Source: an uncultured Lachnospiraceae bacterium (GTDB taxonomy: Bacteria; Bacillota; Clostridia; Lachnospirales; Lachnospiraceae). Taken from it: a stretch of DNA of 45,484 bases. Made by a program: the position numbers and the translations under genes. Under the pieces are notes generated by a model. That model was not told the origin of the DNA and made no database searches. It worked only from the letters and a program-made list of their open reading frames with translations. Position 1 is the first letter of the stretch, and each line of letters opens with the position of its first letter. The stretch spans positions 1 through 45,484 of the forward strand of contig CAZAUP010000001.1 in NCBI GenBank assembly GCA_964488415.1, read 5' to 3'. Shown piece by piece: positions 10,073 through 36,302 of this stretch.

Positions 10073-10088
10073 AAAAAGTGGATTGGTT

Positions 10089-16719: not shown

Positions 16720-16750
16720 TTTAATACCCTCCAAATATGTAAAATAAAGT

Positions 16751-16777: not shown

Positions 16778-16780
16778 CTC

Positions 16781-17871: not shown

Positions 17872-18009
17872 AATAGGAATCCTCCTTGTGTTATTGTGAA
17901 ATTTGACGAAAAACTTTGCACTGGTGCGACAATAAAAAACAAAAAGCGTCAATAAATCAAAAATTGCTATTTTTACACACCGGAAGGGGCGGGATAAAGT
18001 GCATAAAAA

Positions 18010-18035: not shown

Positions 18036-18064
18036 TTGAAATTATACAAATATCATAATATAAT
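18036..18064 (+). promoter_or_regulatory. Strong sigma-A promoter TTGAAA-17-TATAAT for the nine-gene operon
   Basis: -35 at 18036-18041, 17-nt spacer, consensus -10 at 18059-18064. This leaves an approximately 350-nt leader before ATG 18418. Confidence 0.65.
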
Positions 18065-18417: not shown

Positions 18418-21342
18418 ATGTCAAAAGGAAAGAAAATATTCCTTTCTGTAGCGGCTGTTGTTGCGGTTGCAGTGATTGTACTTATCATTGTATTCGGTAA
18501 CAAGGACACCAGCTTCAGAGAAAAGTATGAAGGGACAAATCTTGAAGTGACTGAAGGGGAGTTCGGACGAAGCGATACCTATGCTTTGTATCTGGATGCC
18601 CATGCAGATGCGGCAAGACCTCAGGCAGAAGAAATTGTAGTGGATTTGACCGCATATAATACGGCAAATGCAAAAAAGACTGAGGTAAAAAACAATTATG
18701 AAGGGGAAGATAAGGTTCTTTATCAGGAGGACAGCGGTTATACCGAGTGGCAGGTAAGTGTGCCGGAAAGCGGTATGTACCGTGTATATATTGAGTATTA
18801 TCCGGTAGAGTCCCGAGGGGTTAGCATGGAGCGCGCTTTCTATATTAATGGAGAGCTTCCGTTTTCGGGTTCCGATGCGTTGACATTCACGAGACGTTGG
18901 GCTGACGGCAGCGAGGTAAAGACCGACAATCAGGGAAATGATCGCCGGCCGACACAGGTGGAGGCACCGGATTGGTGTTCGGCATATTTCATGGACTACA
19001 TGGGATATTTTGCTGATCCGTATGAATATTATTTTGAAGCTGGAACCAGTACCATTGCTTTGGAGAGCGTGAACGAGCCGATGGCAATTCGTAAGCTTGC
19101 ATTGCGCCCTGTAACCGAAGTACAGACTTACGAGGAGTATCGTGCATCCCAGCCGAATGTAACCGGTGGCGTGGATTACATAAAGAAGTTCCAGGGTGAG
19201 AATTCGACGGTTCGTTCCGAGGCATCTCTCTATGCCCGTTCCGACCATTCCTCTCCGAATACGGAGCCATATAGTGTTACCGCGCAGAAGCTGAATTACG
19301 GCGGCGGCAGCAGCTGGAAAATTGCAGGTCAGTGGATTGAATGGGAAATTGAAGTGCCGGAGGACGGTTACTATAACATCAGTCTCAAGGCACGTCAGAA
19401 TGCCAGCCGTGGTGTTGTTTCCAACCGTATCATTTACATTGACGGCGAGGTTCCGTTTGAGGAGATGTCTGTTGTTTCGTTTAAATTCAGCAGCAACTGG
19501 GAAAACGTGGATCTGGCAGATGCGGAAGGCAATCCGTATGAGTTTTATCTGACTGCGGGTAAGCATACGCTTCGTATGGAGGTTACCTTAGGTGAGATGG
19601 GTACCATCTTAAATGACTTACAGGATTCCATGACGCGTTTAAATGAGATGTATCGTACCATTCTTGTATTAACCGGTGCATCTCCGGATAAGTACCGTGA
19701 TTACAAGATTGCAGAGATATATCCGGAGGTTATGGAAGGTCTGGAGTTAGAATACAAGCGTCTGTATGCACTGATTGATGAATCGGTAGAATATTCCGGT
19801 CAGCAGTCCGCATATCTTGCGGCAGTGCAGACCTTGGCAAAACAGATTGAGAAGTTTGTAAAAAATCCGGACAAGATTACAAAGCAGTTCGAAACCTTTA
19901 AGACGAATATCAGTGCACTTGGTACTTCTATTAATTCTCTTGCAGAGGGACCGCTTGACATTGATTACATTACCGTAACCGGTACAAATCAGGAGCCGGA
20001 GGAGGTAAAGAGCTCTATCTGGGCAAAGATTGCACATGAGGTTCGCTATTTCATTGCTTCCTTCACCGTTGACTATAATTCACTTGGTGATGTGTACGCA
20101 GGAGATGACTCGGAGGTAATCAATGTATGGATTCTGACCGGTCGTGACCAGAGCTCTGTGCTCAAGTCTCTTATCGATGAAATGTTTACACCGGAGACCG
20201 GTATTCCGGTTAACGTAAAGCTGGTACAGCAGCAGATGGTATTGAGTGCGACAATCGCAGGAACCGGTCCGGATATTGCGATTTCCATGCCGCAGAATGA
20301 GCCGGTAAACTACGCACTTCGTAATGCGGTAGAGGATTTGACCCAGTTTGAGGGCTGGGAAGAGCTGGTAGCCCAGTACAGCGACAGCTCTACGGCACCG
20401 TACTGGTTCGAGGGCGGCTTGTATGCGATGCCGGAGACACAGATTTTTAATGTAATGTTCTATCGTACCGATATTATGGAAGAGCTTGGCTTGGAGGTTC
20501 CGGAAACATGGGATGATTTAATTGATATGCTTCCGACCATCCAGCAGAACAACCTGGAGGTGGCAATTCCGTCTACGGAGCGTAAGTTTGGTAATATGGC
20601 TTCTCCGGACTTGTCTGCATTCATGGCTCTTTTGTATCAGAATGGAGGTTCCTTATATAATGAAGGAAACACCATGACAACGATTGACAGTGAAGCAGGT
20701 ATTAAGGCATTTGAAACCTACACGAGATTCTATTCTCACTATGGTCTGCCGACCACCTACGACTTTGCAACGCGTTTCCGTTCCGGTCAGATGCCAATTG
20801 GTATTCAGGACTATAACATTTACAACACATTAGCGGTTTCCGCACCGGAAATCAGAGGCTTGTGGGAGTTTGCATTGGTTCCGGGTATTGAGCAGGAGGA
20901 CGGCACGGTAGATCATTCCTGTTCTTCATGGGGCGTATGTACGATGCTGATGAAGAATGAGGAGCATTCGGAAGAGTTCAAGCAGAAGTGCTGGGAGTTC
21001 ATTAAGTGGTGGGCAAATTCCGAAACGCAGACCCGTTACGGTCGTGAGATGGAAGCAGTACTTGGTTCTTCCGCAAGACATACCACTGCAAACACGATTA
21101 CCTTTGATCAGCTTCCGTGGAATTCCAAGGAGATGGCTGTATTGAAGGAACAGTGGAGCTACACCGTAAAGATTCCGGAGGTAGCAGGTGGTTATTACAC
21201 AACCAGACATATTACGAATGCAGCACGTAAGGTTTATAACGACAAGGAAGACCCGCGTGAAACCCTGCGTGACTATGCAAAGACCATAAACGACGAGATC
21301 GAGAAGAAACGCCTTGAATTCGGTCTGCCGGTAGAGGAATAG
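18418..21342 (+). CDS. 974-aa membrane-anchored fusion protein: N-terminal TM helix, two CBM-like beta-sandwich repeats, a helical region, and a C-terminal extracellular solute-binding (CUT1 SBP) domain
   Basis: Start at ATG 18418 (MSKGKKIFLSVAAVVAVAVIVLIIVFG) behind AGGAAAGGAG. Internal repeat WQVSVPESGMYRVYIEYYP..SRGV...FYINGELPF...PYEYYFEAG versus WEIEVPEDGYYNISLKAR..SRGV...IYIDGEVPF...PYEFYLTAG. The C-terminal approximately 420 aa look like an SBP_bac_1-type binding protein. Two permease genes follow. Confidence 0.7.
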   Translation: MSKGKKIFLSVAAVVAVAVIVLIIVFGNKDTSFREKYEGTNLEVTEGEFGRSDTYALYLDAHADAARPQAEEIVVDLTAYNTANAKKTEVKNNYEGEDKVLYQEDSGYTEWQVSVPESGMYRVYIEYYPVESRGVSMERAFYINGELPFSGSDALTFTRRWADGSEVKTDNQGNDRRPTQVEAPDWCSAYFMDYMGYFADPYEYYFEAGTSTIALESVNEPMAIRKLALRPVTEVQTYEEYRASQPNVTGGVDYIKKFQGENSTVRSEASLYARSDHSSPNTEPYSVTAQKLNYGGGSSWKIAGQWIEWEIEVPEDGYYNISLKARQNASRGVVSNRIIYIDGEVPFEEMSVVSFKFSSNWENVDLADAEGNPYEFYLTAGKHTLRMEVTLGEMGTILNDLQDSMTRLNEMYRTILVLTGASPDKYRDYKIAEIYPEVMEGLELEYKRLYALIDESVEYSGQQSAYLAAVQTLAKQIEKFVKNPDKITKQFETFKTNISALGTSINSLAEGPLDIDYITVTGTNQEPEEVKSSIWAKIAHEVRYFIASFTVDYNSLGDVYAGDDSEVINVWILTGRDQSSVLKSLIDEMFTPETGIPVNVKLVQQQMVLSATIAGTGPDIAISMPQNEPVNYALRNAVEDLTQFEGWEELVAQYSDSSTAPYWFEGGLYAMPETQIFNVMFYRTDIMEELGLEVPETWDDLIDMLPTIQQNNLEVAIPSTERKFGNMASPDLSAFMALLYQNGGSLYNEGNTMTTIDSEAGIKAFETYTRFYSHYGLPTTYDFATRFRSGQMPIGIQDYNIYNTLAVSAPEIRGLWEFALVPGIEQEDGTVDHSCSSWGVCTMLMKNEEHSEEFKQKCWEFIKWWANSETQTRYGREMEAVLGSSARHTTANTITFDQLPWNSKEMAVLKEQWSYTVKIPEVAGGYYTTRHITNAARKVYNDKEDPRETLRDYAKTINDEIEKKRLEFGLPVEE

Positions 21343-21355: not shown

Positions 21356-22291
21356 ATGGGCAGTATTTTATCGCTGTATTTCAGCAAAAAGAAAAGAGAT
21401 TTCCGTGTAGCTTGGAAGAAGGCTAAGATGGCGAAGAGTTGTTACTTGTTCGTTCTTCCTTATGCTGTGTTGTTTACTTTGGTTATTGTAGTGCCGATTA
21501 TCATGTCTCTGGTACTCAGCTTCACCTACTATAACGTATTGGAGATACCGAAATTTGTAGGTCTGCAGAACTACATTAACCTTATCCTGGCGGATGATGT
21601 ATTCTTAACCGCAGTAAAGAATACACTTGTTTTGGCAGTTATTATCGGACCGGGCGGTTATATTGCATCGTTCCTGTTCGCATGGCTGATTAACGAGCTG
21701 CCGCGTTATTTAAAGGCGGTTGCGATTGTGTGCTTCTATGCACCGTCTATTTCAGGTCAGGCGTATACGATTTGGCAATTGATTTTCAGTAACGATGCTT
21801 ACGGTTGGGCGAACTCCCTGCTTGCGGAGTTCGGTCAGGAACCAATCCTTTGGCTTTCCAATCCGGATTATATGCTGACCGTTGTAGTTGTTGTTTCCTT
21901 ATGGATGAGCTTGGGTAATGGTTTCCTTGGCTTCGTAGCAGGTTTGCAGGGCGTTGACCGTTCCCAGTACGAGGCAGCCTATGTGGATGGCATTAAGAAC
22001 CGTTGGCAGGAGCTTTGGTATATCACGCTTCCGAGTATGAAGCCGATGCTGCTCTTTGGTGCAATCAACTCCATTACCACCGCATTTGGTGTATCCGATA
22101 TCCCGGAAGCACTTTGCGGTATGCCGAGTACGGACTATGCGGTACACACCATGGTAACGCACCTGAAGGATTATGGTCAGTTACGTTACGAAATGGGTTA
22201 TGCGTCCGCAGTAGCAACCATTCTCTTCCTTATCATGCTTCTTTGTAATAAATTTATTCAGGGTCTGTTAAACAGAGTCGGAACAAACTAA
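21356..22291 (+). CDS. CUT1 sugar ABC transporter permease (MalF/UgpA-like), set A
   Basis: 311 aa, 6 TM. EAA loop EAAYVDGIKNRWQELWYITLPSMKP. Confidence 0.9.
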   Translation: MGSILSLYFSKKKRDFRVAWKKAKMAKSCYLFVLPYAVLFTLVIVVPIIMSLVLSFTYYNVLEIPKFVGLQNYINLILADDVFLTAVKNTLVLAVIIGPGGYIASFLFAWLINELPRYLKAVAIVCFYAPSISGQAYTIWQLIFSNDAYGWANSLLAEFGQEPILWLSNPDYMLTVVVVVSLWMSLGNGFLGFVAGLQGVDRSQYEAAYVDGIKNRWQELWYITLPSMKPMLLFGAINSITTAFGVSDIPEALCGMPSTDYAVHTMVTHLKDYGQLRYEMGYASAVATILFLIMLLCNKFIQGLLNRVGTN

Positions 22292-22348: not shown

Positions 22349-23209
22349 ATGGCAAAGATAAAAAAGAAAAAGCGTCAAAATCGGTCCCTGGGGGGCGATA
22401 TCGCAGTTTATTTGGTATTGATTTTGTTCGGCGCATTCATGGTAATTCCGCTGATATACGCCGCATGTCTGGCGTTTAAGCCGTTGGACGAGGTGTTGAA
22501 GAATCCGCCGGACATTTTGGTAAAGAACCCGACGTTAGATAACTTCTCTGACCTGTTTATTGTAATGGGTCAGAACTGGGTGCCGTTTACCAGATATCTG
22601 TTTAACACACTGTTCATTACTGCGGCAGGTACGGCAGGACAGCTGCTTGTGGCATCCATGGGTGCGTATGTGCTTGCGAAGTTTGATTTTCCGGGCGGAA
22701 AGAAATTCTTCAAAATGGTTACTACCGCAATCATGTTCAACGGTTACATTACACAGATTCCGTTGTATCTGGTTATGGCAAAGTTTGGCTGGGTGGATAC
22801 CTATATTGCACCGATTATTCCGGCAATTGCTGCTCCGATGGGTCTCTTCCTGATGAAGCAGTTCATGGAGGGTATTCCGGATTCCCTGATTGAAGCTGCA
22901 AAGATTGACGGTGCGAAGGAATGGGGGATTTTTACAAAAATTGTCATGCCGAATGTTAAGCCGGCATGGCTGACCCTCATTATCTTTTCGGTGCAGTCAC
23001 TGTGGAGTAATCAGCAGTCTACCTACATTTACTCTGAGGAGTTAAAGACACTGCCGTATGCGTTGTCTCAGGTGCAGGCCGGCGGTATTGCACGTGCCGG
23101 TGCAGGTGCAGCGGTATCTCTGGTTATGATGATTGTGCCGATTGGCGTATTCATTTTCTCTGAGAGTAACATTCTGGAGACTATGGCAAGCTCCGGTATT
23201 AAAGAATAG
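22349..23209 (+). CDS. CUT1 sugar ABC transporter permease (MalG/UgpE-like), set A
   Basis: 286 aa. EAA loop EAAKIDGAKEWGIFTKIVMPNVKP. Confidence 0.9.
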   Translation: MAKIKKKKRQNRSLGGDIAVYLVLILFGAFMVIPLIYAACLAFKPLDEVLKNPPDILVKNPTLDNFSDLFIVMGQNWVPFTRYLFNTLFITAAGTAGQLLVASMGAYVLAKFDFPGGKKFFKMVTTAIMFNGYITQIPLYLVMAKFGWVDTYIAPIIPAIAAPMGLFLMKQFMEGIPDSLIEAAKIDGAKEWGIFTKIVMPNVKPAWLTLIIFSVQSLWSNQQSTYIYSEELKTLPYALSQVQAGGIARAGAGAAVSLVMMIVPIGVFIFSESNILETMASSGIKE

Positions 23210-23225: not shown

Positions 23226-24758
23226 ATGAAATTAAGAAAGAAAATTGTAGCAGCTCTCCTTGGTGCGGTGACAGTGCTCAGCATTTGTCCGACCGGAGTT
23301 GCACAGGCAACCGAAGTGAACACATATACATACAATTACGATTTCTGGGGAATCGAGTATGAGTCTCCGGATGCATACAAGGCAACCACCTTTGTTACGG
23401 GAGAGAGTCTTGGTACGACGGAGCTTAAAGCACCGCAGGGTATGTATATTCGTGATGACAGGGTGTATATCGCAGATACCGGTAACAGCCGTATTCTTGA
23501 GCTTCAGGTAAACGGAGCAGAGCTTACGCTGGTACGTGAAATCAAGGAGTTTAAGGGAGATGCGGAGGTAACGACCTTTAATTTGCCGCAGGATGTATTT
23601 GTAACGGCAGATGGAGAGCTCTTTATTGCAGATACCGAGAATCAGAGAGTGGTTCATTTGGATAATGACTTAAATCTGATAAAGTTTATTACCCAGCCGG
23701 TGGATGATCCGACGGTAGACGTGACACTTTCCTTCCTTCCGACGAAGGTGGTGGCAGACCGTGCAGGCCGTGCGTTTGTACTGGTAAAGAGTGTTAATAA
23801 GGGCTTTATGGAGTTTGAGGCAAATGGTGAGTTTATCGCATATGTAGGCGCAAATGAGGTAGTGTTCAATATGGCGGATTACATCAAGAAGGTGTTCTCT
23901 ACCAAGGAACAGCGTGCGCAGATGGAGAGCTTTACGCCGACGGAGTACAATAACCTCTATATTGATGGCAATGGTTTCGTTTATTGTACCACATCGGTAT
24001 TCGATGTGGGTGCGTTGAAATCTGACGCGGCAAAGCCGATTCGTAAGCTTAATTCGCTCGGAAAGGATATTTTAATCAAAAATGCAGAGTATCCGCCGAT
24101 TGGTGATTTACAGTGGGATAATGTAGCCGGTATGGACGGACCGTCCCGTCTTGTAGACATTACGGCATTCGAGAATGAAATGTATTTTGCAATTGACCGT
24201 GTCAGAGGCCGTATTTTCGGTTATGACGAGCAGGGAAATCTGCTGTATGCATTCGGCGGCCCGGGCAACAAGCTCGGATACTTCCAGAATCCGGTGGCGA
24301 TTGACCATATGGGAACGGATTTGTTTGTATTAGACTCCACCTCCGGCGGTCTGACCAGATTCCAGTTAACCGAATTCGGACAGTTAATCTACAATGGTCT
24401 GGAGCAGTATGACATCGGTGAGTATGAAAAGTCTGCGGAGTACTGGACTGAGGTTCTGGAGTTAAACGGGAACTACGACCTTGCGTATATCGGTATCGGC
24501 AGAGCACTTCTCGGACAGGGAAAGTACGAAGAAGCGATGCAGTACTTTGAAGTAAAGCGCGATGATGATAATTATTCTCGTGCATGGAAGTATTACCGTA
24601 AGGAGTGGATTGAGGAAAACTTAGGATATGTTATTATTGTCCTTGCAGTCCTTATTTTAGTACCGGGTGTAATTAAGCTGGTGAAGAAAATCAAGAAGGA
24701 GGCGCGAGAAGAGTATGAATTTCAAATTGAATTGGTACGACGTAATAAACAAATCTAA
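23226..24758 (+). CDS. Secreted NHL-repeat beta-propeller protein with TPR-like repeats and a C-terminal TM anchor
   Basis: Start at ATG 23226 (MKLRKKIVAALLGAVTVLSICPTGVAQA signal peptide, AGGAGG RBS). NHL-like blades (VYIADTGNSRILEL, LFIADTENQRVVHL, LFVLDSTSGGLTRF). TPR-like EYEKSAEYWTEVLELNGNYDLAYIGIGRALLGQGKYEEAMQYF. TM helix GYVIIVLAVLILVPGVI followed by a basic tail. Confidence 0.65.
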   Translation: MKLRKKIVAALLGAVTVLSICPTGVAQATEVNTYTYNYDFWGIEYESPDAYKATTFVTGESLGTTELKAPQGMYIRDDRVYIADTGNSRILELQVNGAELTLVREIKEFKGDAEVTTFNLPQDVFVTADGELFIADTENQRVVHLDNDLNLIKFITQPVDDPTVDVTLSFLPTKVVADRAGRAFVLVKSVNKGFMEFEANGEFIAYVGANEVVFNMADYIKKVFSTKEQRAQMESFTPTEYNNLYIDGNGFVYCTTSVFDVGALKSDAAKPIRKLNSLGKDILIKNAEYPPIGDLQWDNVAGMDGPSRLVDITAFENEMYFAIDRVRGRIFGYDEQGNLLYAFGGPGNKLGYFQNPVAIDHMGTDLFVLDSTSGGLTRFQLTEFGQLIYNGLEQYDIGEYEKSAEYWTEVLELNGNYDLAYIGIGRALLGQGKYEEAMQYFEVKRDDDNYSRAWKYYRKEWIEENLGYVIIVLAVLILVPGVIKLVKKIKKEAREEYEFQIELVRRNKQI

Positions 24759-25389
24759 AGGAAGAAAATTCTTAGACTCCCTCCGCTATGCGCTGTATGT
24801 AATTACACATCCGTTCGACGGCTTTTGGGATTTGACGCATGAAAAAAGAGGTACTGTTGCATCTGCACATGTATTAGTATTTTTATTCTTTATGACAAAC
24901 CTTTGGAGTATGCGTTATTCAAACTTTATGTTTAACAATGTGCTTTGGGAAAAGGTTAACATTTGGATGCAGATTGCGGGCAGCATTGCTCCGATAGTAA
25001 TTTACTGCGCGGCGAACTGGTGTCTGACCACGCTGTTTGACGGTAAAGGACGGTTCTCGGATGTATATATCGGAACGGCGTATGCGTTGACTCCGTATAT
25101 TATTCTGACTAATATTGCTACCATTGTCAGCAATTTTGTAACCGTGGAAGAAGGAGCATTCATCACCATTTTCAACGGATTTGCATTAATCTGGTGCGGT
25201 TTCCTGATTCTGGTTTCCGTTATGCAGATTCATGACTATTCTCTTGGAAAGGCTGTGCTTGCGATTATCGCTTCTGTAGCGGGCATGATGATTATCGTAT
25301 TCTTGTTGCTGCTGTTTTTCAGCTTAATCAGTGACGGTATTGCATTCTTTGTATCGATATACAAGGAAATCATGTTCCGCGTGTACTAA
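24715..25389 (+). CDS. Yip1-domain-like 5-TM membrane protein
   Basis: 224 aa. THPFDGFWDL N-terminal motif followed by five hydrophobic helices. The start overlaps the upstream gene by 44 nt. Confidence 0.6.
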   Translation: MNFKLNWYDVINKSKGRKFLDSLRYALYVITHPFDGFWDLTHEKRGTVASAHVLVFLFFMTNLWSMRYSNFMFNNVLWEKVNIWMQIAGSIAPIVIYCAANWCLTTLFDGKGRFSDVYIGTAYALTPYIILTNIATIVSNFVTVEEGAFITIFNGFALIWCGFLILVSVMQIHDYSLGKAVLAIIASVAGMMIIVFLLLLFFSLISDGIAFFVSIYKEIMFRVY

Positions 25390-25408
25390 CCGAAAGGAGG
25401 ATATATAA

Positions 25409-27949
25409 GTGAAACGAATTGGTAAAATGTTAGTATTCCTTCTTTTGGCAGGAAGCCTGTGTGCCTGTGGTGAGGACGAAGTAGAAAAGGAAATTGTGAT
25501 TCGCTCTTACGATGAGGAAGTACACGGTGCAGAGGAATATAAACTGGAGAATGATGATTTGATTTTTGAGCTGGATCCTTCCACCACCTATTTTACGGTA
25601 ACGCAGAAGTCTACCGGCAAGGTATGGCGTTCCAATCCGGAGGATGGTGCAAACGATCCGAATGCGGATGCTGCAGGTAAAAAGTATTTACAGTCAACAC
25701 TTTTAATTGAGTACAATACTGAGAATGGCGTAAATACGATTTTGAACAATTACGAGTTCAGTATTGCCAACGGCATTTACGAGCTGGAGAAGACGGAGGA
25801 TGAAATCCGCGTATTATACACAATCGGTAAGGTTACAAAAACCTTCTATGTGCCGCCGGCAGTTCCGGAATCCCGTATGATGGAGTTCTACGAGAAGATG
25901 GAGCGTTCGCAGCAGAAGAAGATTGATACCTACTATCGCCGCTATGACATTAACAATCTGTTTGCAACTGATGATAAGTCAGAGCTTTTAGAAACTTATC
26001 CGGATCTTGCAAACGAGCGTGTTTATGTAGTCCGCGAGGGTACGAAGGAGTACCTGATGCGTCAGATGGAGGACATTTTCGCATCAGTAGGCTATACGGC
26101 TGATGATTATGCGGAGGATAAGGCTCGTTACAATGTTTCCACGCAGGAGAATAAAGCAATTATTAACCTGACCTTGGTTTATCGTATCGAGGACAATAAG
26201 CTTGTGGTAGAGATTCCGCATGATGAAATCGAGTACAAGTCGGATTATCCGCTGACAAAAATATCCCTGCTTCCGTACTTCGGTGCAGGCAGCATGGAGG
26301 ATGAAGGCTACATTCTTGTTCCGGAAGGCTCCGGCGCAGTTATTAACTTCAACAATGGTAAGTCCGAACAGTCCGCATATTACGCAGATGTATACGGCTG
26401 GGATTATGACCAGAAGCGAGAGGCAATCGTAGACGAAACAAGAGTGGCAATTCCGGTATACGGAATTGCAAACGGGGACAGCTCTTTTGTGGCAATCATG
26501 GAAGAGTACAGTACCATCGCTACGATTCAGGCAGACGTGAGTGGTCGCCGTCACAGCTTCAATTCTGCATATGCCACCTACGAAATTGTTCACGGTGATA
26601 CCATGGATATTTCCGCAAAGTCCGACCGTACCATTATGGCGTTTGAAAAGAATGTTCCGGAGGGCAGTACGGTACAGACCTATACCTTTATTGAGGGCAC
26701 GGATTATGTAGATATGGCTGAGGTATATCGTGAATACTTACAGGAAAAGTATCCGGAGCTTACGAAGGTAGAGGAAACAGAGCTTCCGGTTGCAGTGGAG
26801 TTTATTGGTGCGATTGACCGTATCAAGCAGATTCTTGGTATGCCGATTAAGCGTCCGGAGGTGCTGACCTCGTTTGCAGATGCAAAGACAATTTTAGAGG
26901 ATATGCTGGCAACCGGCTATGAGAACATTTCCGTGCGTTATAGCGGCTGGATGAACGGCGGTGTGACCCACTCCATTCCGAAGGACATTGATTTGACCAG
27001 CGGCATGGGCGGTAAAAAGGCACTGAACGCATTGATGGATTATGCAAACAGCAATGATATCGATATTTATTTAAACGGTCGTGTGCAGTTTGAGTACGAT
27101 AGTGATTTGCTTGACGGCTTTATTCGCTCCAGAGATGCGGCAAAGTACATCAGCCGTGAGATTACGGAGCTGTACGCATACTCCAACATTACATTTGGTG
27201 AGCTGTCCACAGATCGTCAGGAAACGTACCATCTGCTCCGTCCTAGTGTTTGCGTGAAGCTGATGGACAATTTGGCAGAGGCGGCTGAAAAGTATAAGGC
27301 AGGTGTTTCCTTCGAGGAAGTAGGCTATCTTCTCAGTGCAGATTATAATCCGAGAAGAACCGTGACCCGTGAGGAATCTATGAAGATGCAGATGGAGACG
27401 TTGGCTGAAATCAAGGCAAAGGGTACTCCGATTATGCTTTCTGCAGGTAATGAATATGCACTTGCCTATGCAGATATTATTGTAAACGTAGATTTAGAAG
27501 GAAAGGATTATCAGCTTCTTGACTATAAGGTTCCGTTCTATGAAATTGCAGTGCATGGTTTGATTAATTACACCGGCGATGCCATCAACCTTGCAGATGA
27601 TGCGTTGGATATTGTGCTTAAGTCTGCTGAGTCGGGTGCCGGTCTTTCCTTCACATTTATGAGCGAATCGTCGGATATATTGCAGAATACCGAGTACATG
27701 GAGTATTTTGCTGCCGATTATACGCAGTGGAAGGAAAGAGCAGCCGGTTATTATGTCCGTTATAAAGAAGAAATGGCGGGCTTAAACAACCAGTTTATCG
27801 TAGACCATGATGTGCTTGCAGCGGGAGTTACGGCAACTACCTATGAGGACGGTACCGTAGTATACGTAAACTACAATACAACAGCTTACGAGGACGGTGC
27901 TTTATCCGTTCCGGCAAGAGATTATCTGGTAGAAAGGAGCGGGAACTAA
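25409..27949 (+). CDS. 846-aa lipoprotein of unknown function (from memory it resembles the family catalogued as DUF5696; unverified)
   Basis: GTG start behind AAAGGAGGA. Lipobox LLAGSLCAC. No motif I can assign to a known GH/PL/CE family. The stop codon directly abuts the next permease start. Confidence 0.6.
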   Translation: MKRIGKMLVFLLLAGSLCACGEDEVEKEIVIRSYDEEVHGAEEYKLENDDLIFELDPSTTYFTVTQKSTGKVWRSNPEDGANDPNADAAGKKYLQSTLLIEYNTENGVNTILNNYEFSIANGIYELEKTEDEIRVLYTIGKVTKTFYVPPAVPESRMMEFYEKMERSQQKKIDTYYRRYDINNLFATDDKSELLETYPDLANERVYVVREGTKEYLMRQMEDIFASVGYTADDYAEDKARYNVSTQENKAIINLTLVYRIEDNKLVVEIPHDEIEYKSDYPLTKISLLPYFGAGSMEDEGYILVPEGSGAVINFNNGKSEQSAYYADVYGWDYDQKREAIVDETRVAIPVYGIANGDSSFVAIMEEYSTIATIQADVSGRRHSFNSAYATYEIVHGDTMDISAKSDRTIMAFEKNVPEGSTVQTYTFIEGTDYVDMAEVYREYLQEKYPELTKVEETELPVAVEFIGAIDRIKQILGMPIKRPEVLTSFADAKTILEDMLATGYENISVRYSGWMNGGVTHSIPKDIDLTSGMGGKKALNALMDYANSNDIDIYLNGRVQFEYDSDLLDGFIRSRDAAKYISREITELYAYSNITFGELSTDRQETYHLLRPSVCVKLMDNLAEAAEKYKAGVSFEEVGYLLSADYNPRRTVTREESMKMQMETLAEIKAKGTPIMLSAGNEYALAYADIIVNVDLEGKDYQLLDYKVPFYEIAVHGLINYTGDAINLADDALDIVLKSAESGAGLSFTFMSESSDILQNTEYMEYFAADYTQWKERAAGYYVRYKEEMAGLNNQFIVDHDVLAAGVTATTYEDGTVVYVNYNTTAYEDGALSVPARDYLVERSGN

Positions 27950-28876
27950 GTGAAAGCAAGAGCAAAGAAACCTAGAAATTTACGCAGACGCAATGCGATT
28001 GCGGGATATCTTTTCATCAGTCCTTTCATTATCGGATTTGTGGCATTTATGTTAAAGCCGATGTTTGAATCCTTCCGGATGAGCCTTAGCCGTGTTACGG
28101 TAAATGCTTCCGGAAGCGGAGAGCCGTTTGTAATGGATTTTATTACAAACTTTAAGGAATCGAATTACTTTTATGCATTCTTACGAGACCCGGAATTTAA
28201 GAACCTCTTAGTCGAGACGCTAAAGGATATGGCAATTCAGGTTCCATCCATTTTGGTGTTCAGCTTCTTTATAGCGTTGCTGTTAAATCAGAATTTCAAG
28301 GGAAGAGGCTTTGTAAGAGCAGTATTCTTCCTGCCGGTAATTTTGGCATCTGGTATTTTAGTCGGTCTGGAAACCGATAATGTGTTAATGTCGGGTATGA
28401 AGGATGTTATTTCTGAATCGTCCGGCGCTACCATTACCGCTACACTGGAGGAAATTTTGAAAACGTCCGGTGTCGGGGGAAAGATTTTGGACCCGGTATT
28501 TACGATTATTGATTCGGTATATGATATTGCACTTGCTTCCGGTATTCAGATTATTATCTTTATTTCCGGTTTGCAGACGGTGTCGCCGAGCATGTACGAG
28601 GCAGCAAAGATTGAGGGCTGCAGCGCATGGGAAAGCTTCTGGAAGATTACCTTCCCGATGGTAAGCTCCATGATTCTCGTAAATTTGATTTACTCTGTAG
28701 TTGACTTCTTTATGCGAACAGATAATGAAGCCATGGAATTGATTACCGAAAAGATTAACCCGGAAATGAACTACGGTTTGGGTTCCGCAATGGCGTGGAG
28801 CTACTTCGGCATTGTAGTGGTAGTCTTAGGTATTCTTGTAGCGATTATTTCGAAGAAGGTGTACTATTATGAGTAA
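27950..28876 (+). CDS. CUT1 sugar ABC transporter permease (MalF-like), set B
   Basis: GTG start immediately after the upstream TAA (GGAG 10 nt upstream). EAA loop EAAKIEGCSAWESFWKITFPMVSS. Confidence 0.85.
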   Translation: MKARAKKPRNLRRRNAIAGYLFISPFIIGFVAFMLKPMFESFRMSLSRVTVNASGSGEPFVMDFITNFKESNYFYAFLRDPEFKNLLVETLKDMAIQVPSILVFSFFIALLLNQNFKGRGFVRAVFFLPVILASGILVGLETDNVLMSGMKDVISESSGATITATLEEILKTSGVGGKILDPVFTIIDSVYDIALASGIQIIIFISGLQTVSPSMYEAAKIEGCSAWESFWKITFPMVSSMILVNLIYSVVDFFMRTDNEAMELITEKINPEMNYGLGSAMAWSYFGIVVVVLGILVAIISKKVYYYE

Positions 28877-29867
28877 AGCGAAAGTAGTGAAAAGAAAAGA
28901 CTTCTGGGAGCGGAATAAAAAGACACACGGCTATCTTTTAAAGAAGAAAATCGGTGAGTATTCTTTCCGTGTGATTAGGGCATTGCTTCTGTTCGGCTTA
29001 TGCTTTTTGATTCTGCAACCGCTTATTAACAAGTTATCCGTCAGCTTTATGGAGCAGGAGGACTTGTATGATGCAACTGTTATTTCCATTCCGCGTAACT
29101 TTACCCTTGGGAACTACAGGCTGGTAGATTACCTGATTGGTTACTGGGAGTGTATGTGGAATTCCTTATGGGTGTCCTTTGTGGTTGCGGTGCTTCAGGT
29201 GATTGCTTGTACCCTTGTAGGCTACGGCTTTGCAAGATTTAAGTTTCCGTTTAAAAGCTTTTGGTTCGGTTGCGTAATTCTTGTTATTATCGTGCCGCCG
29301 CAGACGATTATGAGCTCCCTGTACTTAAACTTCCGTTATTTTGATGTATTCGGCATTATTAAGCTGATTACGGGACATACGCTGAACCTTCAGTCCTCCA
29401 TGGCACCGTACCTGATGATGTGTGCTACCTGTATGGGTCTGAAGTGCGGTCTGTACATTTATATGCTCCGTCAGTTCTTCCGTGGTATTCCGAAGGAGCT
29501 GGAGGAGGCAGCTTATGTGGATGGCTGCGGTACGCTTGCAACCTTCTTCCGTATCATGCTTCCGGATGCAAAGTCCATGATTACATCCTGCTTCCTGTTT
29601 GCCTTTGTATGGCAGTGGACAGATTCCTTCTATACGAAGATGTTCCTCGGAAACATGGAGGTATTGACCAAGGGTCTGAACTCTATTGCAGGTCGTCTGG
29701 ATAATTATGTGGAGCAGATGGGTATGGGTACACTTGCAAGTGAAGCATTCCTTCAGCAGACCATTTCAACCGGTATTTTAATGGCAATAGCACCGTTGCT
29801 TATCTTATATCTCTTCGCTCAGAAGGGTTTTGTAGAGAGCTTGAGCCAGACCGGTATTAAAATGTAA
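28869..29867 (+). CDS. CUT1 sugar ABC transporter permease (MalG-like), set B
   Basis: The start overlaps the upstream stop (ATGAGTAA). EAA loop EAAYVDGCGTLATFFRIMLPDAKS. Confidence 0.85.
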   Translation: MSKAKVVKRKDFWERNKKTHGYLLKKKIGEYSFRVIRALLLFGLCFLILQPLINKLSVSFMEQEDLYDATVISIPRNFTLGNYRLVDYLIGYWECMWNSLWVSFVVAVLQVIACTLVGYGFARFKFPFKSFWFGCVILVIIVPPQTIMSSLYLNFRYFDVFGIIKLITGHTLNLQSSMAPYLMMCATCMGLKCGLYIYMLRQFFRGIPKELEEAAYVDGCGTLATFFRIMLPDAKSMITSCFLFAFVWQWTDSFYTKMFLGNMEVLTKGLNSIAGRLDNYVEQMGMGTLASEAFLQQTISTGILMAIAPLLILYLFAQKGFVESLSQTGIKM

Positions 29868-29897
29868 CAAGAAATTATTAAATATTGCAGAAAAAAC

Positions 29898-29926
29898 TAG
29901 CAATTTTTAATGAGGTATGTTATAAT
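29898..29926 (+). promoter_or_regulatory. Possible internal promoter with extended -10 (TAGCAA-17-TGtTATAAT) ahead of the second SBP gene
   Basis: TATAAT at 29921-29926 preceded by TGT. Weak -35 at 29898-29903. Confidence 0.4.
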
Positions 29927-30028
29927 ACATCTAGATAGTTGATGCAGAGGCATTCGCTATACAAAGAGGAGTCGACATTTAAGTCGAATGGGACGCCAAA
30001 CCCAAATTAAAAAAGGAGGAATTTTGGT

Positions 30029-31444
30029 ATGAGAATTAAGAAGTATGCTGCAGCGTTTCTTGCTGCAACCACTGTACTTGGCAGCATGGCTGCTTGTGGC
30101 GGTGACAAAGATGTAGCTGCAACTCCGGCACCGACCAAGGGCGCAGATCAGGACAATGACAAGGATAATGATACCGACCCGACCCCGACGGATGAGCCGG
30201 CAAGAGATCTTGGCGGTATGGAAATTATCATCGGTGACCACTGGTCTCCGGAAGAGCCGAACCCGCCGGCAAGTGCTCAGGAAGAGGCTACCTTGGCTTA
30301 CCGTAACGAGATTATGGCTAAGTACAATTTCACCATGAAGCAGGTTGCTGTAGCAGGCTGGGGTGAGATGACCGATACCTGTACGAACTCTATCCTTGCT
30401 GGAGATCCGGCAGCAGAAGTATTCGTACTTGATTCCAGCTTTGTTTCTAAGCCGATGAGCAATGGTTTGTTCTATGACTTAGCTACCTTGGAAGAGTTTG
30501 ATTTCACTGAAGATAAGTGGAATAAGGAAGCAATCAGCCTGATGACCATTGGCGATTCCATCTATGGTATGGTTTCCGGCAGCCGTCCGGAGGCTAGACT
30601 TGGTCTTTTCTGGAACAAGAGACTGTTCGAGGAAGCTGGTCTTGATCCGGATCTTCCGTATGAATTACAGAAGAGCGGCGAGTGGACCTGGTCCAAGTTC
30701 AAGGAAATCTGTGCACAGCTGACCCGTGATACCAATGCAGACGGTGTGGTTGACACCTACGCTATGGGTAACTTTGGTCCGGATATCTGTAAGGCACTTA
30801 TCAACTCCACCGGTACCGAGCTTATTACTGTAGAGAATGGTCAGTTTGTAAACAACTCCGGTTCCCAGAATGTTCTTGATGCATTGAACTTTGCTAAGGA
30901 GCTTGGTGATGCAGGCTATGAGATGCCGCAGCCGGATGGTTCCCAGTGGGATTGGTACAAGGCAGCATTCTCTGATGGTTGGTTCGCAATGCAGTTCAAC
31001 GAGACCTACATGGCTAACCAGACTTGGGCTGACATGGAAGATGACTTTGGTTTTGTATGCTGCCCGAAGCCGGATGGCGCTGATACCTATCACACCATCT
31101 TCAACGAGAATATCGTAATTATTCCGTCTTGCTTTGATGCAGCTACTGCTTCTAACATCGCTTTCGCATATAACCTTTGGACGAATCCGACCCCGGGTTA
31201 TGAAGAGGACGATGACTGGAAGGATACCTATTACACCAGATTCCGTGATGAGAGAGCAGTTGATGAAACTCTTGAAATCTTCTTCTCTGAAGGTGTTGGT
31301 AGCTTCGAGCACTTAGCACTTGTATACGGCGTAAGCTACGGCGATATCTGCTATTCTTATCCGTTTGCTTCCCAGACTCCGGCTGAGAAGATCGAGGAGA
31401 TTAAGAATACTTGGGATTCTGCAATCGCAGAGGCTAATAAGTAA
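30029..31444 (+). CDS. CUT1 extracellular solute-binding lipoprotein, set B
   Basis: Lipobox LGSMAACGG, Asp/Pro/Thr-rich linker, 471 aa with a typical sugar-SBP size. Strong RBS AAGGAGG. Confidence 0.85.
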   Translation: MRIKKYAAAFLAATTVLGSMAACGGDKDVAATPAPTKGADQDNDKDNDTDPTPTDEPARDLGGMEIIIGDHWSPEEPNPPASAQEEATLAYRNEIMAKYNFTMKQVAVAGWGEMTDTCTNSILAGDPAAEVFVLDSSFVSKPMSNGLFYDLATLEEFDFTEDKWNKEAISLMTIGDSIYGMVSGSRPEARLGLFWNKRLFEEAGLDPDLPYELQKSGEWTWSKFKEICAQLTRDTNADGVVDTYAMGNFGPDICKALINSTGTELITVENGQFVNNSGSQNVLDALNFAKELGDAGYEMPQPDGSQWDWYKAAFSDGWFAMQFNETYMANQTWADMEDDFGFVCCPKPDGADTYHTIFNENIVIIPSCFDAATASNIAFAYNLWTNPTPGYEEDDDWKDTYYTRFRDERAVDETLEIFFSEGVGSFEHLALVYGVSYGDICYSYPFASQTPAEKIEEIKNTWDSAIAEANK

Positions 31445-31499: not shown

Positions 31500-31557
31500 A
31501 TGTAAATAAAGGGATGTATAATTGTGGAACGGATGCGGTGTGAAAGGAGAGGTGCGT

Positions 31558-32925
31558 ATGAGAAAGAGTGTATTAGTTGGAGTGTTATCTGTAGCGACAT
31601 TACTTGGATTAGGTGGGTGTGCGAGTACAATTGAAATCGGGCCGGTACCGTCAATTACACCGAAGCCGTCGGTCACGCCGACTCCTTCTCCGATACCGAC
31701 GGAGCTTCCGGATGACCCGAACCGGTTGAATTTTAAAGCGCAATATGAAGAAAACGGTGTGTTAAAGTCGCTGGCAGAGCGTTATGATGGATACTTTACG
31801 ATGGGTGTTGCTGTATCCAGGGATGAAATTGAAGATGAAACAAAACGGGCGTTGATTACACAGCAGTTCGATACGATTACATGCTTGAATGAGCTTACGC
31901 CCGCTTATATATTTGATCAGGAGGCTACCTTGGCGAGCGGAGATAGGGAGAGAGTAGTAATTGACTTCTCCGGTGCCGATGTGATTTTAAAGTATGCAAA
32001 GGAAAACGGAAAAACAGTACGGGGATCTGCGCTGGTGTCTTATAACCGGACACCGGACTGGTTTTTTACACCGGACTTTGAAATTACAGACATGACACTG
32101 GTTAGAGATACAGACGGCGACGGTATCATGGACGAGCCGGATTATCCGCTTGCTTCTGCAGAGGTTATGGAGAAGCGTCTTGAAAATCTGATTAAGGATG
32201 TCATGGAATATTGTAATACCAATTATCCGGGTGTTATTGTTTCCTGGGATCTGGTGGAAGAGGTTATTGCACCGACGGACGGTCATCCGCAGAAGTACCG
32301 CATGGCGACCTCCGATTGGTATCGTACCATGGGAGATGAATATATTTTTAAAGCATTTGAGTTCGGCAGACAGTATGCGGCGGAGGGGCAGAAGCTCTTT
32401 TACAGTGAATATCAGATATATGAGTCGGTGCGGCGTACTCCGACGGTGGATTTAGTAAAGCTTTTAGTTGAGAAAGACCTGATTGACGGTATGGCGATTC
32501 AGGGTCACTGGACATACCAGTCTCCGAATATGATGGATATTGAAGAAGTGTTCAAGCCGTTTGCAAACCTTGGTATTGAAATCCAGGTTTCCGAACTGGA
32601 TATCAATATGGAAAATACCGATTCGGATGATGCGGAACGAACACAGGATGAGATTTTGGCACAGGTAGCAAAGCGTTATAAGAATGTATTTAATTGGTTT
32701 ACCAAAATGGAGAATGAAGGGAAATATGATTTTGCCGGAATTACGATTTATGGTTTGACAGATGACGCTTCCTGGTACAATCAGCCGAAGGAGGGCGTAG
32801 ACGCAGAAGGCAATCCGACGATTACGATTCCGGAGCCGAACTATCCGCTGCTTTTTGACGGAGAGTTAAAGCCGAAGGATGCATTCTTTGGTGCTCTTTT
32901 GGATGAAAGCATTAAGCTATACTAA
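31558..32925 (+). CDS. GH10 endo-1,4-beta-xylanase, lipoprotein (cell-surface)
   Basis: Start at ATG 31558 (MRKSVLVGVLSVATLLGLGGCAS). Ser/Pro/Thr-rich linker. GH10 acid/base block WDLVEEV and nucleophile block QVSELDI. Confidence 0.8.
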   Translation: MRKSVLVGVLSVATLLGLGGCASTIEIGPVPSITPKPSVTPTPSPIPTELPDDPNRLNFKAQYEENGVLKSLAERYDGYFTMGVAVSRDEIEDETKRALITQQFDTITCLNELTPAYIFDQEATLASGDRERVVIDFSGADVILKYAKENGKTVRGSALVSYNRTPDWFFTPDFEITDMTLVRDTDGDGIMDEPDYPLASAEVMEKRLENLIKDVMEYCNTNYPGVIVSWDLVEEVIAPTDGHPQKYRMATSDWYRTMGDEYIFKAFEFGRQYAAEGQKLFYSEYQIYESVRRTPTVDLVKLLVEKDLIDGMAIQGHWTYQSPNMMDIEEVFKPFANLGIEIQVSELDINMENTDSDDAERTQDEILAQVAKRYKNVFNWFTKMENEGKYDFAGITIYGLTDDASWYNQPKEGVDAEGNPTITIPEPNYPLLFDGELKPKDAFFGALLDESIKLY

Positions 32926-32947
32926 ATGGGAAGAACGAGGGAAGGTA

Positions 32948-33913
32948 ATGCAGGCAGAGAGTTTAAAAGAAAGGTATGCACCGTATTTTAAAATCGGTGC
33001 AGCAGTCAGTCCGCGTGATATTGCACAGTGCGGAGATATAATAAAACAGCATTTTAACAGTATAACCTGTGACAATGCCATGAAGTATTCAAGTTTAACA
33101 AGAACGCCGGGTGAGTTTTTTACCGAGCCGGCGGATAAGGTGGTGGCGTTTGCAAAGGAAAATGGAATGGCTTTGCATGGGCACACACTTGTGTGGCATA
33201 ATCAGACACCGGATTTTATCTTTGAAAATGCAACACCGGAGAAGCTGCTTTCCACCCTGAGGGAGCATGTACGGCGCGTTCGGGAACATTTCGGAGAACT
33301 GCCATCTTTTGATGCCGTAAACGAGGCTGTAGAGGATAAGAGTAATTCGTTTTTGCGTGATACAAAGTGGAAAGCAATTCTCGGAGAGGATTATATTCGG
33401 AAGGTATTTCGGGTTATTAAAGAGGAGCTTCCGAATACGAAGCTGTTTTACAATGATTACAACGAGTTTATTCCGGAAAAGAGGGAGAAGATTGTACGTT
33501 TGTTGCAGTCTCTGCAGGCAGAGGGACTGGTGGACGGCATGGGAATGCAGTTCCATTGCAGCGTGTTTCGTCCGCCGGTTGATTTGATTAAGCGCACAAT
33601 AGAGCAGTATGCATCACTCGGTCTGTCACTTCGTGTTTCCGAGATGGATGTATCGTTGTACAGGGACAATGATGAAAAGCAGTTTGTGGTGCCTGCGCCG
33701 GAGCGTTTGAAAATGCAGGCGGATTTTTATGAGCAGTGCTTTAAGGTGTTCCGCGAATATCATAAGCATATTGAGGCGGTGACACTTTGGGGTGTAGCGG
33801 ATGATGCAACGTGGCTTAATAATTTTCCTGTTGTCGGAAGAAAAAATTGGCCGTTGCTGTTTGATGATAAGCATGAGCCGAAGGAAGCGTTCTATCGGAT
33901 TATGAGCTTTTAA
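32948..33913 (+). CDS. GH10 endo-1,4-beta-xylanase, cytoplasmic (no signal peptide)
   Basis: Start at ATG 32948 (MQAESLKERYAPYFKIGAAV). HGHTLVWHNQTP, FDAVNEAV, FYNDYN and VSEMDV are canonical GH10 blocks. Confidence 0.9.
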   Translation: MQAESLKERYAPYFKIGAAVSPRDIAQCGDIIKQHFNSITCDNAMKYSSLTRTPGEFFTEPADKVVAFAKENGMALHGHTLVWHNQTPDFIFENATPEKLLSTLREHVRRVREHFGELPSFDAVNEAVEDKSNSFLRDTKWKAILGEDYIRKVFRVIKEELPNTKLFYNDYNEFIPEKREKIVRLLQSLQAEGLVDGMGMQFHCSVFRPPVDLIKRTIEQYASLGLSLRVSEMDVSLYRDNDEKQFVVPAPERLKMQADFYEQCFKVFREYHKHIEAVTLWGVADDATWLNNFPVVGRKNWPLLFDDKHEPKEAFYRIMSF

Positions 33914-36225: not shown

Positions 36226-36260
36226 AGCAGGAAATGGAAATAAGGAAAGAAAACAAGAGA

Positions 36261-36286
36261 GCCTCCGGAAAGAATATTCCGGAGGC
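36261..36286. terminator. Bidirectional terminator hairpin between the GH3 gene and mecA
   Basis: GCCTCCGGAA (36261-36270) / TTCCGGAGGC (36277-36286), 6-nt loop. Confidence 0.7.
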
Positions 36287-36302
36287 CCTTGTGTGAAAAA
36301 GG

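Follow-up and report, generated by a model that had tools for sequence, protein, structure and literature searches.

The window analysed here, a stretch of 45,484 nucleotides from an uncultured Lachnospiraceae bacterium (contig CAZAUP010000001.1, positions 1 to 45,484), carries at 23226-27949 a tightly packed triad of genes for an NHL-propeller/TPR protein (gene 1), a Yip1-family membrane protein (gene 2), and a DUF5696 lipoprotein (gene 3). We lean, with modest confidence, towards the reading that the triad belongs, as its accessory part, to a larger cassette, comprised of genes 1, 2, and 3, two ATP-binding cassette (ABC) permeases termed B1 and B2, and a solute-binding lipoprotein termed SBPsmall, which would together form an unusual multi-subunit importer of the CUT1 type. 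The cassette is at home in Gram-positive glycan-utilisation loci, and gene order and spacing indicate that its core (gene 1, Yip1, DUF5696, B1, and B2, usually with a binding protein) is co-inherited and co-transcribed.

ABC sugar importers of this kind are known; the accessory module of propeller, Yip1 protein, and glycosidase-like lipoprotein looks undescribed, and probably ties the uptake of plant sugars to their capture or breakdown at the cell surface. Full-text searches turned up no paper that mentions DUF5696 (PF18952) or that links bacterial Yip1 proteins with NHL repeats or sugar ABC importers. In Gram-positive Firmicutes of the gut and rumen the coupling of extracellular polysaccharide breakdown to uptake is far less understood than in the Sus paradigm of Bacteroidota, and the cassette is widespread (Clostridia and Bacilli), rigid in order, and found in loci for fibre, e.g. 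xylan, mannan, and others. If the reading is true, it would bring a new ABC importer architecture with three accessory subunits, an import function for bacterial Yip1 proteins, a probable new family of glycoside hydrolases (GH) or of glycosidase-derived receptors, and a genomic marker for Firmicutes glycan-uptake loci.

Gene structure of the triad and the importer genes

The triad consists of the following genes.

23226..24758, plus strand: gene 1, NHL propeller/TPR protein with one transmembrane helix, 510 aa, ATG at 23226 after GGAGGAG
24715..25389, plus strand: gene 2, Yip1 membrane protein, 224 aa, ATG 44 nt inside gene 1, AGGAGG 12 nt 5' of it
25409..27949, plus strand: gene 3, DUF5696 lipoprotein, 846 aa, GTG start 19 nt past the gene 2 stop, AGGAGG 8 nt 5' of it, lipobox L-C-A-C

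Each triad gene has its own ribosome-binding site. The TAA of gene 3 ends at 27949 and the GTG of the next permease follows in frame at 27950, with no gap. An earlier reading of the letters alone (the sequence-only reading) had drawn these structures, and they stand as drawn: the signal peptide, NHL blades, TPR repeats, C-terminal transmembrane helix, and basic tail of gene 1 are confirmed by Pfam, hydropathy, and a structural model; coordinates and Pfam agree with a 224-aa, Yip1-like gene 2 product that starts 44 nt inside gene 1 and crosses the membrane five times; and gene 3 is indeed an 846-aa lipobox protein, 19 nt after gene 2, with the in-frame GTG behind its TAA.

The triad lies within a plus-strand operon of the order SBPbig, A1, A2, gene 1, gene 2, gene 3, B1, B2, SBPsmall, GH10, GH10, GH3. 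Its transporter genes are as follows.

18418..21342, plus strand: SBPbig, large membrane-anchored binding protein, 974 aa (SBP_bac_1, E 6.7e-22)
21356..22291, plus strand: ABC permease A1, MalF/UgpA-like (BPD_transp_1, E 8.6e-17), optional set
22349..23209, plus strand: ABC permease A2, MalG/UgpE-like (BPD_transp_1, E 1.7e-11), optional set
27950..28876, plus strand: ABC permease B1, divergent MalF-like (BPD_transp_1, 26.2 bits against a cutoff of 26.4, marginally under)
28869..29867, plus strand: ABC permease B2, MalG-like (BPD_transp_1, E 2.3e-10, 40.9 bits), overlapping B1 by 8 nt
30029..31444, plus strand: SBPsmall, lipoprotein solute-binding protein (SBP_bac_1, E 1.6e-11, 45.2 bits), lipobox LGSMAAC

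Two BPD_transp_1 permeases, B1 being marginally below the cutoff, and an SBP_bac_1 protein make up a CUT1-like type I importer. Among NCBIfam models B1 resembles UgpA/CysW-type permeases.

Conservation of the cassette

Relatives of the locus fall into two sets. The close set holds the best 80 of at least 500 stretches confirmed with the DUF5696 profile in a scan of one genome per species (42-83% identity), and includes Lachnospiraceae, Herbinix, Acetatifactor, Roseburia, Anaerocolumna, Lachnotalea, Vallitaleaceae, and others. The distant set holds 84 metagenome loci, with DUF5696 proteins ~27-30% identical to that of the window, which were scanned with hidden Markov models (HMMs) of the close set.

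At every close-set locus with enough flank the same nine genes, SBPbig to SBPsmall, lie in the same order on one strand. Most junctions are as tight as in the window: a 4-nt overlap is the mode between NHL and Yip1 genes, the median gap between Yip1 and DUF5696 is 19 nt, DUF5696 and B1 abut at 0 nt in 24 of 79 loci, and B1 overlaps B2 by 8 nt in 67 of 76. The close packing first seen in the triad is therefore not specific to the window, as it recurs in the 80 related genomes. Only the gap before SBPsmall is long, with a conserved median of 148 nt; every other junction is tight. In the window this gap (29868-30028, 161 nt, 5' of SBPsmall) holds stable hairpins (z = -3.5) and an extended -10-like element, TGTTATAAT, and may be an internal promoter or an mRNA-stabilising or processing element that boosts expression of the binding protein.

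In the distant set the Yip1 gene is directly 5' of DUF5696 in 70 of 71 loci, including L118, where the distance filter missed a fused open reading frame (ORF); the sole true exception, L140, has an internal deletion. The NHL gene lies upstream in 63 of 63 loci with enough flank, and B1- and B2-type permeases follow DUF5696 directly on its 3' side in all loci with room. SBPbig with A1/A2 may be upstream, downstream, or missing. The order NHL, Yip1, DUF5696, B1, B2 is thus fixed in more than 160 loci of Clostridia and Bacilli, spanning 27-83% identity and 31-62% GC. Co-occurrence of the triad extends beyond this one genome, in the same order, to the 80 species genomes and the 84 metagenome loci wherever the contig permits, L140 excepted, and is far above chance. 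The checks that the sequence-only reading had set for itself all turned out for it, and its interpretation is supported.

These data also redraw the borders of the unit. The sequence-only reading took the three genes as the unit; they are always together, and the unit is larger, as the two permeases downstream belong to it too and, as a rule, so does a lipoprotein binding protein. It further made the triad an accessory of both flanking importers. The downstream half of that claim survives, with B1 and B2 obligate and a binding protein usual; since the upstream importer is optional, the triad is better described as accessory to the downstream importer. The B1 and B2 orthologues score ~255-300 bits on their own models vs ~70-77 bits on models of the A permeases, and hence form, at loci collected through DUF5696, a lineage apart from A1/A2.

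Neither the window operon nor the block at any of the 80 related loci contains an ATPase gene; the hits seen at 9 of these loci fall outside the block, near the locus ends. Firmicutes sugar importers use a shared ATPase encoded elsewhere, of the MsmX/MsmK type. A UgpC-type ATPase gene adjoins the Paenibacillus cassette.

The enzymes beside the cassette vary. Closer loci have GH10, GH3, and GH43, each in some loci only, and distant loci have GH130, GH26, alpha-galactosidase, GH78, GH1, WbsX-like, and DUF4434 proteins. Because the adjoining enzymes differ by locus (xylan, mannan, others), the cassette is generic. It is also multiplied paralogously within genomes, since two complete cassettes, L100 and L131, lie ~30 kb apart on one contig (ERZ773359 NODE-250). 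By NCBI annotation, the plasmid pNP243 of Butyrivibrio fibrisolvens D1 carries the complete nine-gene block, and a plasmid of Paenibacillus cellulosilyticus carries a fused form of the cassette. Cassette genes of the two bear the locus tags WAA20_RS20520-20530 (B. fibrisolvens) and HUB94_RS00500-00505 (P. cellulosilyticus). Cultured carriers include these two species (P. cellulosilyticus as strain KACC 14175), Anaerocolumna spp., Lachnotalea glycerini, and Anaerotaenia torta.

Within the nine-gene block the permeases change most slowly and DUF5696 and SBPsmall most quickly, a pattern that fits contact of the two fast proteins with substrate. The faster evolution of DUF5696 relative to the membrane parts also suits a plainer account, in which the neighbours are merely co-regulated: DUF5696 would be a free tethered exo-glycosidase and the NHL-Yip1 protein a separate surface protein, the two drawing on a common substrate pool with no joint machine. 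Firmicutes glycan operons routinely combine enzymes and transporters, as this one does with GH10 and GH3, and contact of DUF5696 with its partners is hypothetical. Set against this are the ordinary enzyme genes themselves (GH10, GH3, GH43), which are patchy where the order NHL-Yip1-DUF5696-B1-B2 is fixed in more than 160 loci. B1 and B2 being a lineage of their own, and the junctions often overlapping or abutting, likewise speak for a joint unit. We regard simple co-regulation as unlikely, though a serious contender.

The propeller protein and its Yip1 partner

Gene 1 matches NHL (PF01436) at E 1.4e-10 and TPR_1 at 28.3 bits, barely over the cutoff of 27.8. Its hydropathy profile displays a hydrophobic N-terminus or signal peptide and one transmembrane helix, residues 468-486, followed by a basic tail. 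In an AlphaFold2 model (pLDDT 76) a propeller of six blades with four strands each, as expected of an NHL propeller, spans residues ~50-380, and is followed by TPR-like helices (383-464) and a long transmembrane helix. The top Foldseek matches are the TRIM-NHL protein TRIM71, Thin, Brat, and 'Pizza' (E ~1e-14, target-normalised TM-score 0.75), and no enzyme family tops the list. PDB sequence matches include the PknD sensor domain. Some databases label such proteins as gluconolactonases. The label is unsupported because the SGL family scores below its cutoff (23.0 bits against 26.3, over 87 residues only) and no SGL, PON, or lactonase structure is found within the top 50 fold matches of the model.

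At the mature N-terminus (23310-23380, residues ~29-52) is an aromatic peptide, TYTYNYDFWG...SPDAY, that is invariant as YTYxYDxWG...P.AY and is modelled with low confidence. It returns as PY..Y.YD.WG...P.P.AY in many distant, fused relatives, and could be an interaction peptide or a strand that closes the propeller.

Gene 2 is a member of the Yip1 family (PF04893; E 4.6e-12, 46.6 bits against a gathering threshold of 28.6, residues 28-197). A basic N-terminal segment with 8 Lys/Arg precedes five hydropathy peaks, corresponding to five transmembrane helices. Three motifs are the most conserved: HPxDGFWDLxHEKRG (HPFDGFWDL in the window), LTTLFDGKG, and IH..S.GK. All three are predicted to face the cytoplasm, in a topology predicted to be N-in.

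In 42 of 63 distant loci the NHL, TPR, transmembrane, and Yip1 parts form a single ORF. The fusion was checked by reading at L081 and by Pfam at L083 (766 aa) and in P. cellulosilyticus WP_174812422 (719 aa). This natural fusion leads us to treat genes 1 and 2 as acting as one protein. It also argues for the N-in topology of gene 2, because the Yip1 part follows the gene 1 transmembrane helix, which places the propeller outside and the Yip1 N-terminus inside. The extracellular parts are tethered throughout: gene 1 invariably combines a signal peptide with a transmembrane helix at its C-terminus, and DUF5696 always has either a lipobox or an N-terminal transmembrane segment. For DUF5696 a lipobox pattern was positive in 32 of 80 N-termini, and in a sample of 20 inspected N-termini those lacking a lipobox have a transmembrane anchor instead. 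The sequence-only reading had all three products meeting at the outer face of the cytoplasmic membrane. This is right for the extracellular parts, which are tethered there, and not for the most conserved Yip1 motifs, whose predicted place is the cytoplasmic side.

The location of these motifs brings in a second explanation, by which the NHL/TPR-Yip1 protein would regulate the importer across the membrane: its propeller would detect, on the outside, the substrate or partners loaded with it, the cytoplasmic face of Yip1 would control assembly or recruitment of the shared ATPase, and DUF5696 would act independently. NHL propellers can act as extracellular sensor domains, and PknD is among the matches of gene 1. 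The N-in topology, upheld by the fusion and the 8 Lys/Arg, the lack of an ATPase gene within the block, and the Yip1-family protein YknW, which modulates the assembly of its own ABC transporter (PMC4887032), are further points in its favour. The UgpC-type ATPase gene beside the Paenibacillus cassette is neutral here. However, no signalling domain is present, and a regulator of this kind leaves the constant position of DUF5696 as the next gene unexplained. We consider it very improbable.

The DUF5696 protein

Over nearly its whole profile (2-612 of 612) gene 3 matches DUF5696 (PF18952), at E 1e-192 and 642.4 bits against a threshold of 25.6. The family is large, with 5,838 clusters at 50% identity (E <= 1e-3). 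An AlphaFold2 model (pLDDT 81.6, pTM 0.79) displays an N-terminal beta-sandwich, a (beta/alpha)8 barrel, and a C-terminal beta-sandwich, i.e. the fold of GH129 and GH101. A helical insertion of ~90 residues and a low-confidence loop at 565-607 are further features. Foldseek places the model closest to the Zobellia ZgGH129 (5opq; E 1.9e-32, target-normalised TM-score 0.69), followed by NagBb (5wzr; E 1.4e-23), the GH101 enzymes EngBF and SpGH101 (~1e-14), and, more weakly, GH31, GH36, and GH97. Sequence searches of PDB chains agree: the single sequence finds ZgGH129, a 3,6-anhydro-D-galactosidase, at E 2.5e-6; a 36-sequence profile finds it at E 2.3e-11; and a 60-sequence profile adds the GH129 enzyme NagBb of Bifidobacterium at 1.4e-6. 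Identity to the GH129 and GH101 structures is 11-15%.

The modelled architecture of gene 3 is thus that of retaining glycosidases acting for the most part on alpha-linkages, and the role of an enzyme, one of three suggested by the sequence-only reading, gains a glycosidase fold from both Foldseek and profile. The search likewise leaves the triad unassigned to unrelated, well-known functions, gene 3 being DUF5696 and the NHL/TPR protein having no known family function. The protein is described here as GH129/GH101-like in predicted fold and is not filed as a member of either family, because sequence similarity is partial and both the matching of catalytic residues and the activity are putative.

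Candidate functional residues can be drawn from conservation. Across 60 diverse DUF5696 representatives (27-42% identity) D645, R654, and D705 never vary, and D237, D332, E365, and E741 are almost invariant. By the secondary structure of the model, D645 and D705 lie in stretches after barrel strands 4 and 6; such stretches are the usual catalytic face. The window protein keeps both. Since both Asp are kept, hydrolysis by the window protein is plausible. An exact consensus pattern of eight positions is found in 38 of 87 DUF5696 sequences, and most others deviate at non-acidic positions only.

A different pair, D637 and E682, had been considered from the analogous sites of GH13/GH101, where barrel strands 4 and 5 end, and was rejected, as position 637 is Asp in only 22 of the 60 representatives and 682 is mostly Ala. 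Among close homologues 35 of 36 have Asp at 637, as do 69 of the 80 genome relatives, where the window protein has Glu; the position is not conserved in the wider DUF5696 family. Mapping the GH129 catalytic residues by sequence failed as well, since HMM alignments miss the barrel past ~residue 550.

Proposed mechanism and its weighing

In the mechanism that we propose, the Yip1 protein and the C-terminal transmembrane helix of gene 1 would form one membrane unit that shows the propeller and TPR helices outside. This unit would hold the tethered DUF5696 protein beside B1 and B2. DUF5696 would bind, and in most lineages probably trim, oligosaccharides freed by secreted enzymes; in the window their source would be the anchored GH10 xylanase acting on xylan. 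SBPsmall would hand the product to B1/B2, with power from an ATPase encoded elsewhere (a shared MsmX/UgpC-type). In the window a second, optional importer, the CBM-bearing SBPbig (CBM, carbohydrate-binding module) with A1/A2, would have been added upstream, and the operon as a whole would be dedicated to glucuronoxylan. Catalysis, substrate, and the passing-on of the product are parts of this mechanism that we infer.

A stronger form of the mechanism can be stated. DUF5696, Yip1, and the importer would form a stoichiometric super-complex of the cytoplasmic membrane, a Gram-positive counterpart of the utilisome, in which Yip1, often fused to NHL/TPR, bridges a GH129-like lipoprotein, be it glycosidase or receptor, to its dedicated importer and mechanically couples extracellular glycan capture or cleavage to uptake. 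It would be a generic, multiplied unit for glycan foraging in Lachnospiraceae, other Clostridia, and Paenibacillus, the first import role for bacterial Yip1, and the origin of a new GH family. We hold this form as tentative and, taken whole, rather doubtful.

Several points weigh against the preferred reading of the triad as accessory part of a CUT1-type importer. The physical complex of DUF5696 with the NHL/Yip1 unit and the permeases is something we infer. The predicted cytoplasmic motifs of Yip1 point to a partner inside the cell, which could be the ATPase or the permease coupling helices, and a plain outer-face scaffold does not explain this. Broad shifts in specificity would be required of one glycosidase family found at loci for xylan, mannan, and other glycans. 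The profile alignment to GH129 is colinear through the N-terminal domain, the barrel to ~550, and the C-terminal domain, and leaves 645 and 705 unaligned, so that D645 and D705 are candidate equivalents only of the GH129 catalytic residues. In the distant subfamily ~9% of sequences have Asn at 645 (L110, L113, L115, L121, L139, L149, and L160) and ~8%, in separate sequences, have Asn at 705 (L091, L093, L099, L105, L109, L132, and L141); the Paenibacillus DUF5696 aligns Thr at 705. In long DUF5696 proteins of 1,622 and 2,431 aa no known domains, and no CBM, were found.

The Asn variants form separate subclades that keep the whole cassette, and may be natural inactive, binding-only forms. Because such variants occur, hydrolysis cannot be the sole conserved role of the family, and because they affect the best-conserved acidic residues, catalysis by gene 3 is unproven. 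This is the ground for a third explanation, that DUF5696 is chiefly a non-catalytic glycan-binding or receptor subunit on a reused glycosidase fold, with the NHL/TPR-Yip1 protein as its membrane dock. The lack of conservation of the GH13/GH101-style pair at 637 and 682, the latter mostly Ala in distant members, is in keeping with it, as is the presence of one DUF5696 family at loci for chemically different glycans. The invariance of D645, R654, and D705 in the 60 representatives, both Asp being kept in the window and the full acidic set in most sequences, argues the other way, and the nearest folds of DUF5696 are all active retaining glycosidases. A chiefly non-catalytic DUF5696 is, in our judgement, improbable.

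Comparison with known systems

In terms of transport the closest relatives of the cassette are the maltose-type CUT1 importers of Firmicutes, likewise comprised of two BPD_transp_1 permeases and a lipoprotein SBP_bac_1 protein in an operon without an ATPase. We know of no further membrane or surface subunits in canonical CUT1 importers. The cassette differs from them by three extra genes, placed between two transporter sets and never parted from the B pair, and by its divergent B1.

Of the accessory proteins, gene 3 has the three-part architecture in common with GH129 (5opq/8rzk of Zobellia galactanivorans; the alpha-N-acetylgalactosaminidase NagBb of Bifidobacterium bifidum, 5wzn) and with GH101 endo-alpha-N-acetylgalactosaminidases. 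It is unlike either in its lipoprotein or transmembrane anchor, its helical insertion, its obligate operon partners (Yip1, NHL, and permeases), and its Asp-to-Asn variants. The settings differ too: DUF5696 is found in xylan, mannan, and other loci, GH129 and GH101 in mucin or carrageenan loci. Gene 1 shares its six blades with extracytoplasmic and other NHL propellers, i.e. the PknD sensor of M. tuberculosis (1rwi), TRIM-NHL proteins, and Pizza designs. Unlike these, it carries TPR helices behind the propeller, then a C-terminal transmembrane helix or a Yip1 fusion, and in front of the propeller the invariant aromatic N-terminal peptide.

For gene 2 the sequence-only reading had stated that bacterial Yip1 proteins have essentially no assigned function. 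This is largely so, except that the Yip1-family protein YknW of Bacillus subtilis/amyloliquefaciens has a role, as a required accessory of the ABC transporter YknXYZ whose assembly it modulates (PMC4887032). YknWXYZ resembles the cassette in having a Yip1-family gene inside an ABC transporter operon. YknYZ, however, is a MacB-type transporter that works with a membrane-fusion protein and has been described as an efflux pump, whereas the cassette encodes an importer of type I that depends on a binding protein. No propeller is partnered with or fused to YknW, and YknWXYZ lacks a glycosidase-like subunit; the cassette has both. The window operon has no MacB/FtsX-type permease or membrane-fusion protein, and the resemblance to YknW is functional only.

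In concept the cassette is similar to the Sus-like systems of Bacteroidota, where SusCD utilisomes work with surface glycan-binding proteins and surface glycosidases. Both combine a generic, multiplied uptake core with lipid-anchored proteins that bind or cleave glycans, and with enzyme loci specific for the substrate. The Sus-like systems use a TonB-dependent transporter of the outer membrane and the cassette an ABC importer of the cytoplasmic membrane; there is no homology between them, and the complex of the cassette is a putative one.

The surrounding locus

The region around the triad is a glucuronoxylan-utilisation locus, and the nearest homologues are from metagenome-assembled genomes of Lachnospiraceae. 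Features of the locus beyond the nine-gene block are as follows.

16894..17952, minus strand: AraC-family regulator (Pfam HTH_18/AraC_binding), divergent from the operon
18036..18064, plus strand: promoter-like site TTGAAA-17-TATAAT, the best of the region (11 of 12 consensus positions), a consensus match only
31522..32925, plus strand: GH10 xylanase (Glyco_hydro_10, E 9e-62), N-terminal hydrophobic anchor or signal, transmembrane residues 16-34
32879..33913, plus strand: GH10 xylanase (Glyco_hydro_10, E 1.3e-86), without a signal peptide
34069..36225, plus strand: GH3 of beta-xylosidase/glucosidase type, Glyco_hydro_3 N- and C-terminal domains, Fn3-like, last gene of the operon
36258..36289, called on the minus strand: strong hairpin between the convergent GH3 and MecA genes, 13-bp stem with 8 GC pairs

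SBPbig, the first gene of the operon, was listed with a TTG start at 18358 that is probably wrong. Its translation begins instead at the ATG at 18418, preceded by the ribosome-binding site GGAAAGGAG. The protein opens with an N-terminal transmembrane anchor (residues 27-45 of the ORF, ~7-25 if numbered from this ATG); two CBM35/CBM6-like modules come next, then a helical linker, and the SBP_bac_1 domain is C-terminal. Two internal repeats are seen at 18418-20199, around 'YxVxIEYYPVESRG...FYINGELPF' and 'YNISLKARQNASRG...IYIDGEVPF'. With weak matches of the repeats to CBM35 (2w47, 2w1w) and CBM6, at E 9e-4 (~1e-3), SBPbig looks like a binding protein that carries its own carbohydrate-binding modules.

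Transcription may start at the promoter-like site. Between it and the first gene lies a leader of ~350 nt (18065-18417), moderately folded (z = -2.5) and without a match in an Rfam search, that could be a regulatory leader. The scan displays no strong terminator between the promoter-like site (18036-18064) and the hairpin 3' of GH3, which is likely the operon end and would serve the plus-strand operon as its terminator. No Rfam families or tRNAs were found in the window.

AraC homologues are present at 36 of the 80 related loci, where most of them are encoded close to the upstream end and on the opposite strand, and distant loci have LacI-type regulators in place of AraC. The regulator is therefore placed outside the core, and a dedicated signalling system is unlikely, as regulator class varies by locus.

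The two GH10 ORFs adjoin at 31522-33913 and, with the start codons as listed, overlap by 47 nt. To judge from their N-termini the first is presumably extracellular and the second presumably cytoplasmic. The first lies downstream of the cassette in closer relatives only.

Upstream of the operon, at 5300-11808, a glucuronoxylan toolkit comprises GH67 alpha-glucuronidase, UxuA mannonate dehydratase, CE15-like glucuronoyl esterase, and GH43 beta-xylosidase. The esterase is a 541-aa ORF with a TTG start that overlaps uxuA. Genes for AdhE and a small kinase are likewise upstream of the operon, and a minus-strand gene at 15568-16782 encodes a 404-aa protein with two CBM4_9 modules. Downstream of the locus are MecA (minus strand, 36303-37112) and, at 37261-42664, genes for a Ser/Thr protein kinase, a GH18 protein with Cu_amine_oxidN1 and SH3 domains, an Amidase_3 cell-wall amidase, and Sua5, all of them unrelated to the triad.

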